Positions 7,262 through 60,991 of a DNA stretch of 64,000 bases are shown here, piece by piece. A program made the position numbers and the translations under genes. Location of the stretch: the IMG/VR virus record IMGVR_UViG_3300032038_000020, positions 1-64,000 of that record; one strand, 5' to 3'. Within the stretch, counting starts at the first letter, position 1. Every line of letters begins with the position of its first letter. The DNA is from an uncultured virus (IMG/VR IMGVR_UViG_3300032038_000020) (taxonomy: Duplodnaviria > Heunggongvirae > Uroviricota > Caudoviricetes). Under the pieces are notes generated by a model. The model was not told where the DNA came from, searched no databases, and saw nothing but the letters and a program-made list of their open reading frames with translations.

Positions 7262-7867
7262 TTAGTCCTCTACTTCAGTTCCAGGGAGTCTTCCCTGGAA
7301 GAAGGAGAACTTATTTGCATCGAGACACCCGTAAAAATTACAGGAGTCTCCGTTATAGTTGAAGCATGCAATATTCCAGTACTTATCTGTGAGATGAGTA
7401 ATGGATACTAAAAGAAGGCACGCAGCCTTCTTCATGATAAGCGGAATTGATTTCCACCATACATTTACAATCTCATCCTCAAAGATTACTTCTGCCAGAG
7501 GTATCTCCTTAATGAAATTGTCCTTGGTGTTCTTCTCGATGGCCTGTACGCAAAGACCAAGGTCTGTCGAAAATCTTTTTGAAGTTACCACCGCTAAGGA
7601 GTTAATCACTCCATACGGATCCCCGTCTCTTATTGCGTCTATTAAAGTATCGATGCTTTTCGTAAAACTTACCCTGTTAAGGCACGAATCCTCAACAGGC
7701 TGTCCTGTTCCAGTTATATAATATTCCCCTGTTTCATGGTCGAACTTTGTTACAAGTTCGAAAAGAATAGACTTGATCTGTGCATTTGTGAATGTCTCTG
7801 CTGGCATTACTTTTGCGATCTCGTTTACTGCTGTAGCCTCATTAGCCTTCTTTGTGTTGTTTCTCAT
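7262..7867 (-). CDS. orphan hypothetical protein (no SD; structured UTRs on both sides)
   Basis: 201-aa ORF with its own early-type promoter at 8054-8064 and terminator at 7103-7131. Confidence 0.7.
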   Translation of the reverse strand: MRNNTKKANEATAVNEIAKVMPAETFTNAQIKSILFELVTKFDHETGEYYITGTGQPVEDSCLNRVSFTKSIDTLIDAIRDGDPYGVINSLAVVTSKRFSTDLGLCVQAIEKNTKDNFIKEIPLAEVIFEDEIVNVWWKSIPLIMKKAACLLLVSITHLTDKYWNIACFNYNGDSCNFYGCLDANKFSFFQGRLPGTEVED

Positions 7868-8149
7868 AATTCAAGCTCAGTAGGTGCTACACCTTTGACA
7901 GAGGTCAAGCTGAGCATAATGTAGTTTCCTTTGGAAACGCCCATTCATAGGGGCACACCCTTTTTCATGAATGCAGGGATCCTGCTTCTCCATGCAGGAT
8001 CATAGAATTTTTGCATCCATGGTATGGAGTTAATCAATTCTCTCATACACCTCAATGATATACAACCATCTTAGCTAACTTTTACGATAGCCACTACATA
8101 TATATAATCAGTGCCTACACGGGCACTTAAAATAAAGGAGGACACACAT

Positions 8150-41092: not shown

Positions 41093-42646
41093 TTACGCAA
41101 CCTTTGGCTCAAGATCAAGACAAGACTGAATGTCGTCAAGATCCTCTTCTGTATATGAATCCATAGAAAGGTTAACGAAGCTGTTGAGACAGATGAGATT
41201 GTTGGTCTGAAGAGATACATTAGTCTCAAACAGACCAGTGTTTCTGGAGATCTGACCAACGTAACGTGGATTGAATACTTCCATACAAGCCTTGAGGAAC
41301 TCCTGATTGATGATGTACATGCAGTTCAGAGTATCACCATCAAAGTCTGCATTAAGACCAGAGAGAATCTCAAGTGGCAGTGACATTGCATAAGAGTCAA
41401 AGTGAATACCAACAACCTGCATCTGAAGAACTGACAGAGACCAGATAGATGGATTACGATTGATAAGTACACCGACATACTCGGAGTTGACTATATTCAT
41501 CATAATGTCATAGATCTCTTTAGACGGATTGATAGTTGCCATGAACCACTTCTGATATGCAATGTGACGAGGCATTGTCTTTGAGAGAATATTGACTATT
41601 CTGAACTCAAGAAGCTCTACCATAGATGCATATGGGAGTATTACCTGATCTATCTCAAGATCACTGTTCGGCACGATTACTGATCTCGCACAGAAGTTAT
41701 ATCTGCCTCCTATAGTAGAACGTACCAGTCCCTTCTTATGAGAAAGCTGCTTCTCAAGGTCTGTATAGATATCCATCCACTTAGACTGCATTCTATACAG
41801 AATCTGTTTAGCAGGTTTACCAGTACGTCTAGAGACAAGCTGGTTACGATTGACTCTTGTAGCCTGAGCCGCAAGAATATTATACAGTGAGTTATTACCA
41901 TCAAAGTTGAACTGACTGTCGTCAAGGTTGAATGGTCTTAACTGTGTAGTATAGACTGGAATGGAGTGGGTGAACACGATGTTCTTATACTCCATGATGT
42001 GGTCATAGTAATCCATCTTCTCTGGCTTCTTGGCATGCTTGTTCTTATAGAACTCCATGATCTCGTCAAAACGATCACGGAATGCAAGTATACCAATTCC
42101 AACGAATGGACTACTCTTACTAGGTTTCACCTCGATAGGTTTACCGTCTACATCTATCTTATCATCATTATCGATGATTGCATCGAACTCTTTGGCTCCG
42201 ATAAATGCAGAGATAGACTTGAACAGGTTGGGATGAATCAGACAATACTTTTCGTCTATACATATCCATCCAAACTTCTCAAAGTCATCACCCATGTAGT
42301 CTACTGGAGTATGACAATACTCACAGATCTGTCCATAGTGTAATCTACCATTAAGATGATTGCACTTACATCTGTAGCGATTAGAGTATGCATCCTGATC
42401 ATTCAGAGTGGGACCGAAGAATGTCGAGAAGATACTTTTGTCGCTCTTAAGGTCTTTCTTGATGTCCTGACGCTTCTCGATGATCATACCCTTACCTCTC
42501 ATAAGGTCAGCTTCTCTTTCCTTATCGAGGTCTATGATTTCGAGAGACGTCTCATATACGTATTGCTGTTGTGTTTTGGGGTCTGATGATACGGGTGTTA
42601 TTGAAAGGGTTGTTCTCCTTTCACGTCTGTCGTAGTCGCTTAACAT
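41093..42646 (-). CDS. rpoC: RNA polymerase beta-prime N-terminal/catalytic subunit (probably non-virion RNAP)
   Basis: Zinc domain CKC..CEYC, FGWI, IPVY..LRP, KKGLVR..GGRYNFCARSVI, INRNPSI and LNADFDGD. Confidence 0.93.
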   Translation of the reverse strand: MLSDYDRRERRTTLSITPVSSDPKTQQQYVYETSLEIIDLDKEREADLMRGKGMIIEKRQDIKKDLKSDKSIFSTFFGPTLNDQDAYSNRYRCKCNHLNGRLHYGQICEYCHTPVDYMGDDFEKFGWICIDEKYCLIHPNLFKSISAFIGAKEFDAIIDNDDKIDVDGKPIEVKPSKSSPFVGIGILAFRDRFDEIMEFYKNKHAKKPEKMDYYDHIMEYKNIVFTHSIPVYTTQLRPFNLDDSQFNFDGNNSLYNILAAQATRVNRNQLVSRRTGKPAKQILYRMQSKWMDIYTDLEKQLSHKKGLVRSTIGGRYNFCARSVIVPNSDLEIDQVILPYASMVELLEFRIVNILSKTMPRHIAYQKWFMATINPSKEIYDIMMNIVNSEYVGVLINRNPSIWSLSVLQMQVVGIHFDSYAMSLPLEILSGLNADFDGDTLNCMYIINQEFLKACMEVFNPRYVGQISRNTGLFETNVSLQTNNLICLNSFVNLSMDSYTEEDLDDIQSCLDLEPKVA

Positions 42647-49395: not shown

Positions 49396-49848
49396 TTATA
49401 TACCAGTTTGTCCGTTGTGTTCCATAACGAAGTTTGTTACTCTGAAGTACACTCTTTTGGCTATTATATCAGTGATAGCATCCTCATTGTAGAGGATACA
49501 TAACTGCTCATATAGAGCTTCTGAAAGTCTTTGTGAGACGAGAGTACAGATATCTTTGTTGATCTGAATCTCTTCCTCTTCTTTGATATAGTAATCACTC
49601 TTATAAGCAAGATTGAGTATAGTGAACTCCTCAAAACATTGCTCTACAACAAGATCGAGCTTCTCATCTATCTTGTTATCAATGTCGAGTGTGGTGATAT
49701 GTTTATATCTTTCAAGTTCCACGTTGTTATCTTTAGCCGTAGCCCATACCTTTATTGCAGTCTTAGCTAAACTCCTGAGTGACAGGAGGTAGATCATACT
49801 AAAAACGATAAGGACTTTGACCAGGAATTGTATCGATATGACTGGCAT
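49396..49848 (-). CDS. membrane-anchored hypothetical protein
   Basis: N-terminal hydrophobic helix; start position uncertain. Confidence 0.6.
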   Translation of the reverse strand: MPVISIQFLVKVLIVFSMIYLLSLRSLAKTAIKVWATAKDNNVELERYKHITTLDIDNKIDEKLDLVVEQCFEEFTILNLAYKSDYYIKEEEEIQINKDICTLVSQRLSEALYEQLCILYNEDAITDIIAKRVYFRVTNFVMEHNGQTGI

Positions 49849-50524
49849 AAGTTTTCTCACTCCAATTCTTTACTTCTTCAGCTACTTCGAGAAGTCCATC
49901 ATCTACTGAGTCTACTTCTTCGTAAGCTGTGCGTATATAGTAAAGCACCTTGGTACAAATATCTGGAGTGATGCCGTTGTAGTATCTCTTGAAGAGTTCT
50001 GTCCACTTTCCAAATACCTGATTAGGGTGCGTATAAAAGTTATCGGCGTTATGATAGAGCTGATGCACAGTTTTACTCATCATAACTATTGGTACCATGT
50101 TGTTCGCATGAGCAAATCTGAGCTCTGCTACTACATGAGGTACTGTTACGTATCCATAAGTATTAAGAAAGTGTTCGGTGATCATAACTGTAATGTCGAA
50201 GATCGTTAAGATACAATGGTTCATTTCCAATGTAGCCATGTTCGAATCGATATTGTGCAGTACTTGACAATGATCAAGACCCATCTCCATCAAGTATGCT
50301 TTGTAGTTCTTATAGAATCTGAGTCCTCTAAAGAGATTGATAGCACTATGTATGAATCTATTATAGAGGTCTACATCTATCATGGAATCCTTAGTCTGCA
50401 TCATAGGAAGTTCATACGGTGAACTTGGAGAACACAGTGTAGGATTACCATTATTAAGATACGCTGTTACATCTGGGAAGGGCTGTCCATTACCCTTATA
50501 TGTAAGATCTAATGTTTCATTCAT
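49799..50524 (-). CDS. conserved hypothetical protein, degenerate HNH-like
   Basis: C..LEMNH....IVMMSKTVHQLYH pattern; late-type promoter at 50549-50560. Confidence 0.45.
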   Translation of the reverse strand: MNETLDLTYKGNGQPFPDVTAYLNNGNPTLCSPSSPYELPMMQTKDSMIDVDLYNRFIHSAINLFRGLRFYKNYKAYLMEMGLDHCQVLHNIDSNMATLEMNHCILTIFDITVMITEHFLNTYGYVTVPHVVAELRFAHANNMVPIVMMSKTVHQLYHNADNFYTHPNQVFGKWTELFKRYYNGITPDICTKVLYYIRTAYEEVDSVDDGLLEVAEEVKNWSEKTYASHIDTIPGQSPYRF

Positions 50525-50567
50525 ATTCTATGCCTCCTTAGCACGTATTATAAGATAGTTTAAAGAC

Positions 50568-50766
50568 AAAAAGAGGGGAGGAGGCCGTTAAGCCTCCTCT
50601 GCGAAGGGGGTGAATGGTTCTAGATAAAGCCAAATTAAGCACCACTTGAAGAATGGATGTCGTTACGCCTACGACAACCGAGGGCTCAATAGGCAATACA
50701 TGAGTTGAACCGAATGCTAGAATGATTATAGTCACGTTAGCGAGACGATCCGTCAACATCCCGCTC
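50568..50766 (-). ncRNA. candidate stand-alone structured ncRNA (~200 nt)
   Basis: Own promoter AACA-N6-TG (50766-50777), no SD, several stems whose G-U pairs work only on the minus strand, own terminator. Confidence 0.6.
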
Positions 50767-50794
50767 ACTATAGTGTTATAGGAGTTGTAAAGTA

Positions 50795-51238
50795 TTATTC
50801 TGTTTCTTTAACACTTGTTTTCTTTATGTCAATGATAGCAAGCAACTCTTCCGCCGATACAGCGATATTGCTATTGAGAGGTCTGACATAAATAGAATGG
50901 ACCCGTCTGAAGTCTTGTAATGCCCTGAATACATCTTTATCAAACTGGTCATGAAGCCCAATACTGTACCCTTTGATAAACATAAACAGTCTCACTATAC
51001 CCCATAGAGTATCTCTAAAGAATGATAGACTTATCTGCTTATCAAGGATTGTTTTCTCAAGCTGGGGTTCAGATTTGACGTTTAGGTATCGCTTCAGTAT
51101 TTCCATACAGATGTCGTGTTGCTCTTCGTATGTGTTAAAGTTATGTGATGGTGTGTACTCCATACGTTTCACACAAAAACGAACAAATGATTCTTTGCCG
51201 TCTTTATCGATGAAACTATGGTCTTTGTTGATAGACAT
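50795..51238 (-). CDS. hypothetical protein with a possible peptidoglycan-binding-like helical domain
   Basis: LFMFIKGY..G....FDKDVFRALQDFRR resembles PG_binding_1; promoter at 51263-51274. Confidence 0.45.
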   Translation of the reverse strand: MSINKDHSFIDKDGKESFVRFCVKRMEYTPSHNFNTYEEQHDICMEILKRYLNVKSEPQLEKTILDKQISLSFFRDTLWGIVRLFMFIKGYSIGLHDQFDKDVFRALQDFRRVHSIYVRPLNSNIAVSAEELLAIIDIKKTSVKETE

Positions 51239-58957: not shown

Positions 58958-60991
58958 TCAGTTCTTCCTCTTGTTGTAGTTATTGTCCTTTCTTCTCTTC
59001 TTGTTTCTCTTCTGTTCATATTTCTTTGCTCTTGCTGCTTTCTCAGGATCATAGTAATCTGTGATCACTGATGAAGTAGATACTGAAATAGGCTGTTCTT
59101 CTTCTTCATCTCCCCAGTCTTCTCCTTCTTCTCTAGCACGGAGAGGAGGAGTAGAATTGTCTGGTGTCATCGTAGATGAAGTGTATGCCTTCTTAGGACG
59201 AGGTGTAGTGTCAACTGTATACATCCACCAAGGTGTCTCATTGTTCTTCACAGATTCCTCATAGATCTTCTTCGCATCGTCATTTTCCTCTATCTCTATG
59301 TGTTCTGAATCGTTCTTTTCAGATTCTCCTTTAGTCCCCTGAAGCTGTTCCTTAACAAGCTCAGGAATCATCTTCATGAAAGCTGGGACGACTTTGTCGA
59401 CGATATCGATGATGAGACTCTTCTTGTCAGGCATTCCCTGATAAAGTGAAGCGACAGTCTCTTTCATGCTCTTAAAGTCTACCTCGACTGCCATGAAGTT
59501 CTCGTTGATCTTGTTTGCATCTGTTGCATACTCATCTCCGAGATTCTTAAGATCGTTTGCTATCTTTTCGATCTTTTCATCAAGGTCATTGATCTTGTTG
59601 TAGATCGATGAGGCGAATCTATCGAACTCATCACGAGTGATGTAATCCGCATCGGTGTCTTCATCATCCTCATCTTCATTCAAATAATCAAGATCTCCTT
59701 TATAGTTAGCTGCAAGAACTTCAGCAGTAGCTGAATACGAATTCAGGATTGCGGTGTCGTCAGGAACAACCGACTCATCAACAATTTCTGCTTCAACATG
59801 CTCTACAGGAGTCTCATTTGTTTCGACGTCAACAACCTCTTCTTCCTTCTTATCCTCTACTTCATCGTCTTCAGCCATTACATCAAGTCCTGAAGACGAA
59901 GTGAAGCTGTTAGGATTAGTAGCAAATTCCGTCAGTCTTGCCATTGATTCTACGAACGAATCTGTGGAATCATCAGAAGTTATAACTGGTGCTGATATCG
60001 GTGCTGCCTTAGGTGCAGGTGCATGCTCCATATCAACAAATGATGAAGAACGGTCTACAAGTACCTTCTTCTTGGTCTTCTGGCTTACGCCGTCTACGAT
60101 TACATCGTCTGTGTCAAAGATAATTTCGATTGCCATATTAGATAACTCTCCTTTTCTGCTTTCGCCCTTAACGTAGGTGCGATTGATTGTGGTGGGTGTG
60201 TTTGTAGCCATAAGGCTCTTGATCTCGTACTTCTGTCCGCAGACAGTGCATTCCATCTTATTGAATCCGAGATCAAAATCAATAAGACCATTGCATGGCA
60301 TTTCTATACCATGTCTTTTGACCCTTCTAGTACAATAGCACTTCTTAGGGTCTAAGATAACGACAGACGGAAAGTCACATAAGATTGGGCCAAAGTTTCT
60401 TCTTATAACCCACTGCTTAGGTGTAGCGATTCCTACATCTGTCATGGCAATCTTTCTTCTTCTGAAGACGATATCTAAGATATCAAAGATCTGATCGCCA
60501 TAATCTATTATACTGTCTTTGTCTATTCTGAGACCAACCTCATCCAATGCTATTGCACCAGACTGAGTCACATCATAGACTTTGGTACAGTATGGTTTAA
60601 GAACATGCTGAACGTTGAACTCGTCCTTGTTGTTCTTAAATCCTTCTAGAGAGGTGCTTATCTTAGCACCGAACTGAGGGAATTCAACAGATGAATAGAA
60701 CCTTCTATTAGTTCCACCGATCTCTGTCTTGAACCCTCTGCTTTCCATAAACTCATCCAGAAGATGATACTTTTCTATCGGATGAGTTGTTAGAGTTGGT
60801 GAGACAGCTACATCCTCGATGAACTTGATGTCCTGAGGAGTGAACCATCTCGCTAATGGAGGACTCTGCCAAGAATCATACCAACGAATCATCTGATCAT
60901 CGATAGACATCTCTGGATCGAATCCATGCGTTTCTTTATACTTAGCCACAGGGTCAAAGTATATTTTATCGAGGTCTTTATTCACTCTCAT
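58958..60991 (-). CDS. protein-kinase-like domain, zinc ribbon and acidic/coiled-coil C-terminal region
   Basis: IGGTNRRFY (Gly loop), GAKI (Lys), NKDEF (Glu), MTDVG..PKQW (catalytic loop), LCDFP (DFG-like); CTVC. Confidence 0.6.
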   Translation of the reverse strand: MRVNKDLDKIYFDPVAKYKETHGFDPEMSIDDQMIRWYDSWQSPPLARWFTPQDIKFIEDVAVSPTLTTHPIEKYHLLDEFMESRGFKTEIGGTNRRFYSSVEFPQFGAKISTSLEGFKNNKDEFNVQHVLKPYCTKVYDVTQSGAIALDEVGLRIDKDSIIDYGDQIFDILDIVFRRRKIAMTDVGIATPKQWVIRRNFGPILCDFPSVVILDPKKCYCTRRVKRHGIEMPCNGLIDFDLGFNKMECTVCGQKYEIKSLMATNTPTTINRTYVKGESRKGELSNMAIEIIFDTDDVIVDGVSQKTKKKVLVDRSSSFVDMEHAPAPKAAPISAPVITSDDSTDSFVESMARLTEFATNPNSFTSSSGLDVMAEDDEVEDKKEEEVVDVETNETPVEHVEAEIVDESVVPDDTAILNSYSATAEVLAANYKGDLDYLNEDEDDEDTDADYITRDEFDRFASSIYNKINDLDEKIEKIANDLKNLGDEYATDANKINENFMAVEVDFKSMKETVASLYQGMPDKKSLIIDIVDKVVPAFMKMIPELVKEQLQGTKGESEKNDSEHIEIEENDDAKKIYEESVKNNETPWWMYTVDTTPRPKKAYTSSTMTPDNSTPPLRAREEGEDWGDEEEEQPISVSTSSVITDYYDPEKAARAKKYEQKRNKKRRKDNNYNKRKN

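Follow-up and report, generated by a model that had tools for sequence, protein, structure and literature searches.

The window that we analyzed, positions 1 to 64,000 of a partial virus record of 122.5 kb, contains on its minus strand what is almost certainly a real RNA gene, located at 50568..50766 and specifying a non-coding RNA of about 199 nt. The gene is under purifying selection. An initial annotation of this DNA had proposed a dedicated late phage ncRNA at this place, and the proposal is borne out by conservation in five distinct relatives, the lack of a conserved reading frame, a promoter and a terminator of its own and contigs found in RNA libraries. Taken with the affiliation of the phage, these features suggest a stand-alone late ncRNA gene that belongs to a single clade of jumbo phages of the AR9/phiKZ type.

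The RNA and its close relatives come from a clade of uncultured jumbo phages seen in cattle and gut samples. A complete close relative (G045, 232 kb) codes for multisubunit RNA polymerase subunits, tubulin, RecA, a chaperonin and phiKZ-type head proteins, and the RNA polymerase subunit in the window (41093-42646) has its closest counterparts in phiR1-37 and the AR9 group, so that phage-encoded multisubunit RNA polymerases, an AR9-type trait, are found in both. The Shine-Dalgarno (SD) sequences and the relatives of the lysin point to a Firmicutes host. Three contigs of related phages (L299, L300 and L301) are filed within bacterial MAGs (Bacilli, Succinivibrionaceae and Izemoplasmatales), probably as binning by-catch rather than as evidence of the host. 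G045 also has a Tad2-like anti-Thoeris domain (L207:17053-17910) and an nrdD gene interrupted by a LAGLIDADG homing endonuclease gene (L217:8511-11713), the split being probably an intron. The relatives were gathered by searching with the 241-aa protein encoded downstream of the RNA, which provided five further distinct versions of the element with 207-212 nt. Structures were compared over six distinct sequences (the window and five relatives, L007, L013, L015 and L016 among them), while some counts are given over eight copies.

Boundaries and non-coding nature of the gene

The RNA has a 147-aa ORF on one side and a 241-aa ORF on the other, and a GH25 endolysin gene lies a short way upstream. 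It is preceded by a late promoter of the non-virion RNA polymerase type (AACA-CTATAG-T/G, 50766..50777, minus strand) that was present as first annotated, matches exactly the AR9 late consensus AACA-(6N)-T(A/G) and was invariant in 6/6 sequences. As the last base of the AR9 consensus is the transcription start (PMC5312081), G50766 is the expected 5' end of the RNA. On a reference profile made up of the 34 SD-linked promoters of this form in the genome, the promoter of the RNA reached 8.7 bits, low in the range of the 34 (1.3-12.8, with only three lower), and 8.7 bits or more were found at 0.05% of the genome positions. A register 4 nt further upstream gave -26.8 bits and was rejected. At the other end, the GC-rich intrinsic terminator (50568..50599) was found at its annotated place, with a hairpin of -16.4 kcal/mol (50599-50578) kept in 6/6 sequences and a U tail. 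It is one of seven terminators detected in 3.4 kb, vs 1.4 expected. The four stems and the two loops of the initial annotation (CUCAUGUAUUGCCUA at 50704-50690 and AGGCGUA at 50670-50664) were likewise present with their letters and coordinates. What failed was the argument that wobble pairs fix the strand: the plus strand folds too (-61.4 kcal/mol, z=-2.4), and without the terminator the opposite strand has the better z in 4/8 copies. It is the promoter and the terminator that fix the strand of the RNA.

Four of 17 RNA-library runs were compared with the window, their contigs showing presence only (not strand, ends or level) and possibly containing DNA. One metatranscriptome contig (X3) covers 50607-50763 and another (X4), from a different bovine study, 50605-50754, both with 0 differences. 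On the terminator side their ends are no more than 2 nt apart, immediately ahead of the stem, which is a weak hint. In neither X3 nor X4 was there a contig on the flanking genes, and X3 additionally covers 49461-49743, although coverage holes carry no weight here. A contig from a run of uncertain kind (X2, 50597-50863) joins the end of the 147-aa ORF and the RNA, and the fourth run (X5) gave contigs over the upstream ORF and the lysin and none on the RNA.

The core of the RNA was 88-93% identical in the four relatives compared, vs 66-69% at the four-fold degenerate sites of the neighboring gene. As a caveat, the whole 270-nt gap was 82% identical to the relatives, no more than other gaps of the genome (67-89% over their longest matches). 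The long invariant blocks take in unpaired positions. An overlapping frame of 76 aa stops after 13-53 residues in 5/5 relatives, and no SD-preceded start was found inside the RNA in the eight copies examined, in agreement with the roughly 170 nt without SD noted initially. Upstream of the core there is a variable AU-rich linker (50723..50738, minus strand) with frame-breaking indels and a second late-promoter-like 12-mer (50738-50727), near-consensus in the window and full in L007/L008 (6.1 and 8.7 bits), that was not found in the linkers of L013, L015 and L016. Judging from the sequence, transcription might also start there and give a shorter RNA that begins shortly ahead of the core.

Comparison with known families agreed with the original statement that no tRNA, tmRNA, RNase P or ribozyme is recognized here. 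The covariance models of Rfam 15 gave 0 hits in the window at the gathering threshold, and at E<=10 none matched the RNA core (riboswitches, ribozymes, 6S, SRP, RNase P, pRNA, HEARO and RsaE); a GIR1 match at that level lay outside the core and was spurious. ARAGORN found 0 tRNA or tmRNA genes in the window. In the 3' end of the 147-aa ORF, a match to Lacto-phage-1 (50817-50896, minus strand) had an E of 1.3 and 16.7 bits vs a cut-off of 50, and was taken as chance. We found no description of this RNA in the literature, where motif lists in supplements could include it.

The upstream 147-aa ORF (50795..51238, minus strand) has, according to structure searches, a peptidoglycan-binding-domain fold in its C-terminal half. 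The top seven matches of its model (pLDDT 69) were cell-wall enzymes or binding proteins, and it is this half that aligns with them, with modest scores (Z 4.5-5.7, rmsd 1.8-3.9, 62-88 residues), and this predicted fold would group the protein with the lysis genes. A recombinase core-binding/ALOG domain suggested by the Atlas was discarded, Foldseek giving nothing at E<=0.001 and the wide search leading to the peptidoglycan-binding fold. On the same two grounds we dropped the idea that the ORF and the RNA form a protein-RNA pair; both are missing between the lysin and the 241-aa gene in distant phages (the ORF from all six distant genomes fetched, among the matches listed). The downstream 241-aa core gene (phrog_12252; 49799..50524, minus strand) has a predicted HNH-like fold. 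Its model (pLDDT 81) best matched the HNH endonuclease of phage GVE2, again modestly (Z 5.1, rmsd 2.7, 84 residues), and aligns with HNH parts only, those of IscB included. The gene has a separate late promoter outside the RNA (50549..50560, minus strand), and an equivalent promoter is found before the orthologue in phages without the RNA. A 25%-identical paralogue is located in the same genome (G000 83580-84098), and likewise in most of the relatives fetched, among the matches listed.

Alternative folds of the RNA

Folding and alignment predict that the RNA starts with a 5' hairpin, P1 (50739..50765, minus strand), with 9 bp and the invariant loop letters UUGACGGA. All of its alignment cells (100%) are paired, with two one-sided changes, and its pairing probability goes from 0.12 to 1.0 depending on the copy. 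For the conserved core (50616..50711, minus strand) the favored fold of the full-length RNA in these calculations is a rod. This is built from the helix GGUUC (50711-50707) with GAACC (50620-50616), the helices GUA/UAY and GCC/GGC, the helix AUUGAGCCC (50690-50682) with GGUGCUYRAU (50643-50634), an 11-nt bulge with the invariant UCUUCAAG and then an apical hairpin. The apical hairpin (50658..50676, UGUCG/CGACA, invariant loop letters GGCGUA) is common to the rod and to an alternative fold, whose other hairpin (GGUUCAA/UUGAGCC, 50683..50711; 100% of cells paired, one one-sided change) is mutually exclusive with the rod and is the candidate nascent fold.

Both hairpins had been proposed initially and are kept in 6/6 sequences. 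The kissing loops proposed with them are not the favored full-length fold, the rod (in which the GCC of the first loop is paired with the 3' strand) being preferred in 5/6. With the kissing loops held open, the hairpin fold was worse than the rod by 2.3-4.8 kcal/mol in 5/6 and by 0.3 (a tie) in L013; the kiss could contribute up to about 5-6 kcal/mol before loop penalties, so the kissing fold may form all the same. The complementarity of the loops (UGCCU with AGGCG) survives in four kissing pairs kept in 6/6, while the fifth is found in 1/6, the window only, and in shuffles the chance of at least 5 bp between random loops of 15 and 7 nt was 0.18. Similarly, the closing helix UUCUAG/CUAGAA is there in the window, but two of its six pairs exist in 1/6 sequences (again the window only).

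Over the alignment, 98.6% of the cells of the rod were paired vs 95.1% for the hairpin/kissing structure, and the three unpaired cells of the rod come from a one-base misalignment of L007. Two-sided compensatory changes were 0 in either fold among the six distinct sequences. All five one-sided changes (three in the rod helices, two in P1) keep G-U-compatible pairs on the transcribed strand, which is weak evidence. The z of the whole region, -3.3, is largely due to the terminator; without it the values were between -1.1 and -1.8 in 8/8 copies.

Nascent transcripts were represented by 5' fragments, in equilibrium calculations without pseudoknots. In these fragments the hairpin GGUUCAA/UUGAGCC had P=0.98-0.99 in the five relatives and 0.01 in the window, and in the full-length RNA the rod had P=0.95-0.99 in 5/6 sequences and 0.07 in L013. 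Since the hairpin is dominant in the 5' fragments and the rod in the full-length RNA, the RNA may be bistable. An invariant long-range pairing of 8 bp, GGAUGUUG/CGACAUCC (50761-50754 with 50662-50655, minus strand), competes with P1 and the apical hairpin, with P=0.23 in the window and about 0 in the relatives.

Distribution among related phages

By aligning the downstream protein we arrived at 48 viral loci. A covariance model was built from the six close sequences (effective number 1.08; diverged homologues may be missed) and run, besides DNA searches, over 46 of the virus records. Strong matches came from two close relatives. The other 44, of which 18 have an estimated completeness of at least 90%, gave none that was convincing. 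Two weak matches of the model were dismissed on alignment. All 44 more distant records keep the downstream core gene. Its distance to the lysin in G004 and G015, both complete, is 139 and 122 nt, with no room for the RNA. As far as can be detected by sequence comparison, the RNA appears to be a clade-limited accessory.

Searches at the nucleotide level gave the same picture. With blastn against 50,697 phage records we obtained chance matches of 23-30 nt (best 20 of 21) and no real similarity to AR9, phiKZ, 201phi2-1 or PAK_P3, and against 72,556 plasmids no match. The three MAGs holding related contigs were negative (0/3, best 150 candidates each), eight loci searched with the filters off gave at best AU-rich noise (E 0.086), and 299 of 301 Bacillota genomes gave six matches at E<=0.01, near chance. 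Pattern scans recovered only the four known IMG/VR relatives; one of the scans gave at least 119 loci, two of them real and both known, and L325, also from these scans, was rejected as a homologue. Among 211 intergenic gaps of nine genomes the best other match, among those listed, was in G012 (E 0.054), a gap with an early-type promoter in front and, by eye, a different pairing, and it was rejected. Phages with 65-83% identical proteins do exist in the protein collection.

Possible functions and relation to known RNAs

By elimination we infer an accessory late RNA that is recognized by a protein, a decoy or sponge, and give this reading a probability of roughly 0.45. A folded ligand bound by protein is suggested by the invariance of unpaired as well as paired letters, by searches in which no phage or rRNA target was seen and by the related phages that do without the RNA. 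The non-virion polymerase would make the RNA of about 199 nt late in infection, beside the lysis genes, and the product would settle into the 5' hairpin, a flexible linker, an irregular rod of about 95 nt and a short C-rich tail. It would then act in trans through protein binding, the contact being made by the invariant unpaired letters of the P1 loop, the 11-nt bulge and the apical loop. The partner would most likely be a host RNA-binding, nuclease or defence protein titrated by the RNA, which would thus be an accessory part of the interaction with the host and not a part of core assembly. A Pfam scan of 186 G045 proteins detected no reverse transcriptase, Ro60 or type III toxin family.

The target searches bear on the explanation that we place next, which is possible if unlikely: a base-pairing sRNA of the Firmicutes C-rich type (RsaE/RoxS-like), with a single-stranded UCACCCCC masking the G-rich ribosome-binding sites of phage or host mRNAs at a late stage of infection. 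Antisense sites of the invariant blocks conserved in three phage genomes did not go beyond shuffles (longest 14/12/13 bp vs 15/16/14), and the longest rRNA matches, of 8-12 nt, compare with shuffle maxima of 12-13, the rRNA being that of stand-in Bacillota genomes and not of the host. A duplex scan of the start regions with the whole RNA was discarded as too permissive, its top genes differing by genome. Pairing of the apical loop with the start of G000 86883-87704, strong in two relatives (-17.6) but weak in the window (-12.0), was also set aside. Specifically for the C-rich motif, UCACC(C/U)C before the terminator (50606..50613, minus strand), the letters UCACC are invariant in 6/6 and anti-SD-like (the 16S 3' end of the fetched loci reads GAUCACCUCCUUU), and RsaE/RoxS provide a precedent (PMC6158497). 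Over 97 orthologue triplets its best conserved partners, among the matches listed, were a few phage genes with G-run SDs, including G000 105637+ (-16 to -19 kcal/mol in all three genomes) and window 58958-60991. However, any C-run would choose the same genes and the permutation null is invalid, orthologous start regions being alike by descent, so these genes are not counted as targets. Besides, L007 has UCACCUCU instead of the C-run, and the motif could have arisen as a degenerate copy of the 3' arm of the terminator; in the full-length RNA of the window it is unpaired with a probability of 0.56-0.9, but in some relatives it is partly paired within the molecule. The sRNA would also leave the invariant 100-nt core unexplained. 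A single-stranded C-rich motif able to pair with the SD is shared with RsaE/RoxS, as these are described in the cited work (PMC6158497). The RNA here differs by its one unduplicated motif, its large invariant core, the lack of an Rfam match and targets that are predicted only.

A cis element is decidedly unlikely. It would be an attenuator or riboswitch-like leader governing read-through to the HNH-fold gene, or else a structured 3' UTR protecting the mRNA of the peptidoglycan-binding gene. The order promoter - structure - terminator - gene and the two mutually exclusive folds are what such an element might show, no terminator was detected between the 147-aa ORF and the RNA, with contig X2 spanning both, and phiKZ-like phages make 5'UTR-derived sRNAs by early termination (PMC11512511, PMC10914365). 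Yet the candidate antiterminator has -3.2 to -5.9 kcal/mol vs -16.4 to -16.6 for the terminator in 6/6 sequences, and Rfam gave no riboswitch match. The separate late promoter of the HNH-fold gene, and the wide occurrence of this gene without the RNA, argue against a riboswitch and equally against an RNA that serves the neighboring HNH-fold protein as a guide or scaffold, similar to the HEARO/omega RNAs (Rfam RF02033). This last is the least credible of all the readings. HEARO RNAs are structured RNAs located in the 5' UTRs of HNH nuclease genes (PMC9755519), and the RNA here likewise lies directly upstream, 44 nt from a gene whose model best matches HNH nucleases. It differs in having no HEARO match in Rfam, in the 44 records with the HNH-fold gene and no detectable RNA, and in its 5' end, which is invariant with no variable guide part, the linker variants descending from one sequence, unlike guides.

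The two folds would also allow a two-state 'timer' RNA, which we consider quite doubtful. Kissing hairpins formed during transcription would hide the C-rich tail, the completed 3' strand would slowly refold the RNA to the rod, and the exposed anti-SD tail would then silence G-run mRNAs. The helix sets of both folds are intact in all six sequences, but the 5' fragment of the window prefers a third pairing and the helix hiding the tail is strong in one copy only. The initial annotation had thought of an assembly RNA. The pRNA of phi29 is of similar size, with its own promoter and loop-loop pairing, and is an essential part of packaging. A stable kissing-loop RNA of this kind would agree with the size, the promoter, the late timing, the possible loop-loop pairing and the two hairpins with four kissing pairs kept in 6/6 sequences. 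It is nevertheless improbable: the rod is favored in 5/6 and leaves the kiss outside, the closing helix and the fifth pair are lost in the relatives, the loop match has the chance of 0.18 given above and there is no Rfam match. Furthermore, no homologue was detected in the 44 more distant records that keep the downstream core gene, which disfavors an essential assembly role.

We regard as very improbable a new self-cleaving or otherwise catalytic RNA, even if the invariant unpaired letters in a compact core would suit it. Apart from the spurious GIR1, there was no Rfam ribozyme match at E<=10. An HDV-like ribozyme core contains nested helices and, by eye, the 15-nt loop is too short for them. 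In addition, with a start and an end of its own, the RNA needs no cleavage. Just as remote would be conservation at the DNA level, as a binding or packaging site with an incidental transcript. The weak folding z without the terminator and the lack of two-sided changes are in line with it, but the invariant promoter and the conserved terminator bracket the conserved stretch exactly and, on the transcribed strand, none of the five one-sided changes breaks G-U-compatible pairing. DNA repeats at the locus were judged by eye only.

The RNA has its nearest counterparts in other phages. The late units of Bacillus phage AR9 are similar in their AACA-(6N)-T(A/G) promoter and in the homologous multisubunit RNA polymerase subunits of the phage; those in the part of the AR9 study used here are mRNAs, one tRNA and antisense RNAs, with no stand-alone structured RNA of this kind (PMC5312081). 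Small RNAs are found in phiKZ, 201phi2-1 (sRNA005) and PAK_P3 (ncRNA1, about 210 nt, late) (PMC11512511, PMC10914365). They are also short (90-210 nt), structured and kept among close relatives, and have no assigned function in the sections of these papers that describe them. However, they are mostly derived from 5'UTRs or 3'UTRs, whereas the RNA here has its own promoter and the next gene another.

Other candidates were seen in the same phages. Outside the window, G000:C1:112792-~112990 (plus strand) is a second candidate for a stand-alone late RNA, also with the AACA-N6-T/G start. Its predicted fold is a long rod with about 30 bp between the 5' and 3' ends, which are kept in G045 and G046, and, as modeled, it is a better candidate for a 6S-like RNA than the one studied here. 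Also outside the window, G000:C1:71025-71190 (plus strand) has a late promoter, a structured non-coding stretch closed by GGCGG/CCGCC and a strong hairpin, with ends conserved and the middle variable in G045 and G046. A further structured gap driven by a late promoter, of about 260 nt, is located at G045:33129-33482 (minus strand). Finally, a repeated leader is found directly before the start codon at window 7867-7965 (minus strand), G000 91334 (minus strand), G045 42930 and G046 216696, with GCUCAG/CUGAGC, a possible GGUGU/GCACC pseudoknot, no obvious SD and no Rfam match.

The RNA family is new to Rfam, while small late RNAs with no assigned function are already known from phiKZ, 201phi2-1 and PAK_P3. 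Jumbo phages with their own polymerases make small late RNAs, and the papers, in the parts cited here, assign a function to almost none. For now, the RNA is one of several orphan late RNAs, confined to one uncultured clade. Its clear boundaries, its strong conservation, its absence from Rfam and its presence in gut RNA libraries make it a concrete candidate for probing and for pull-down. A bistable RNA would be a new timing device, and if the two-state scheme held, late events such as lysis would be timed by a self-refolding RNA. Should the decoy reading be right, the RNA would lead to a host protein or a defence that gut jumbo phages neutralize with RNA.
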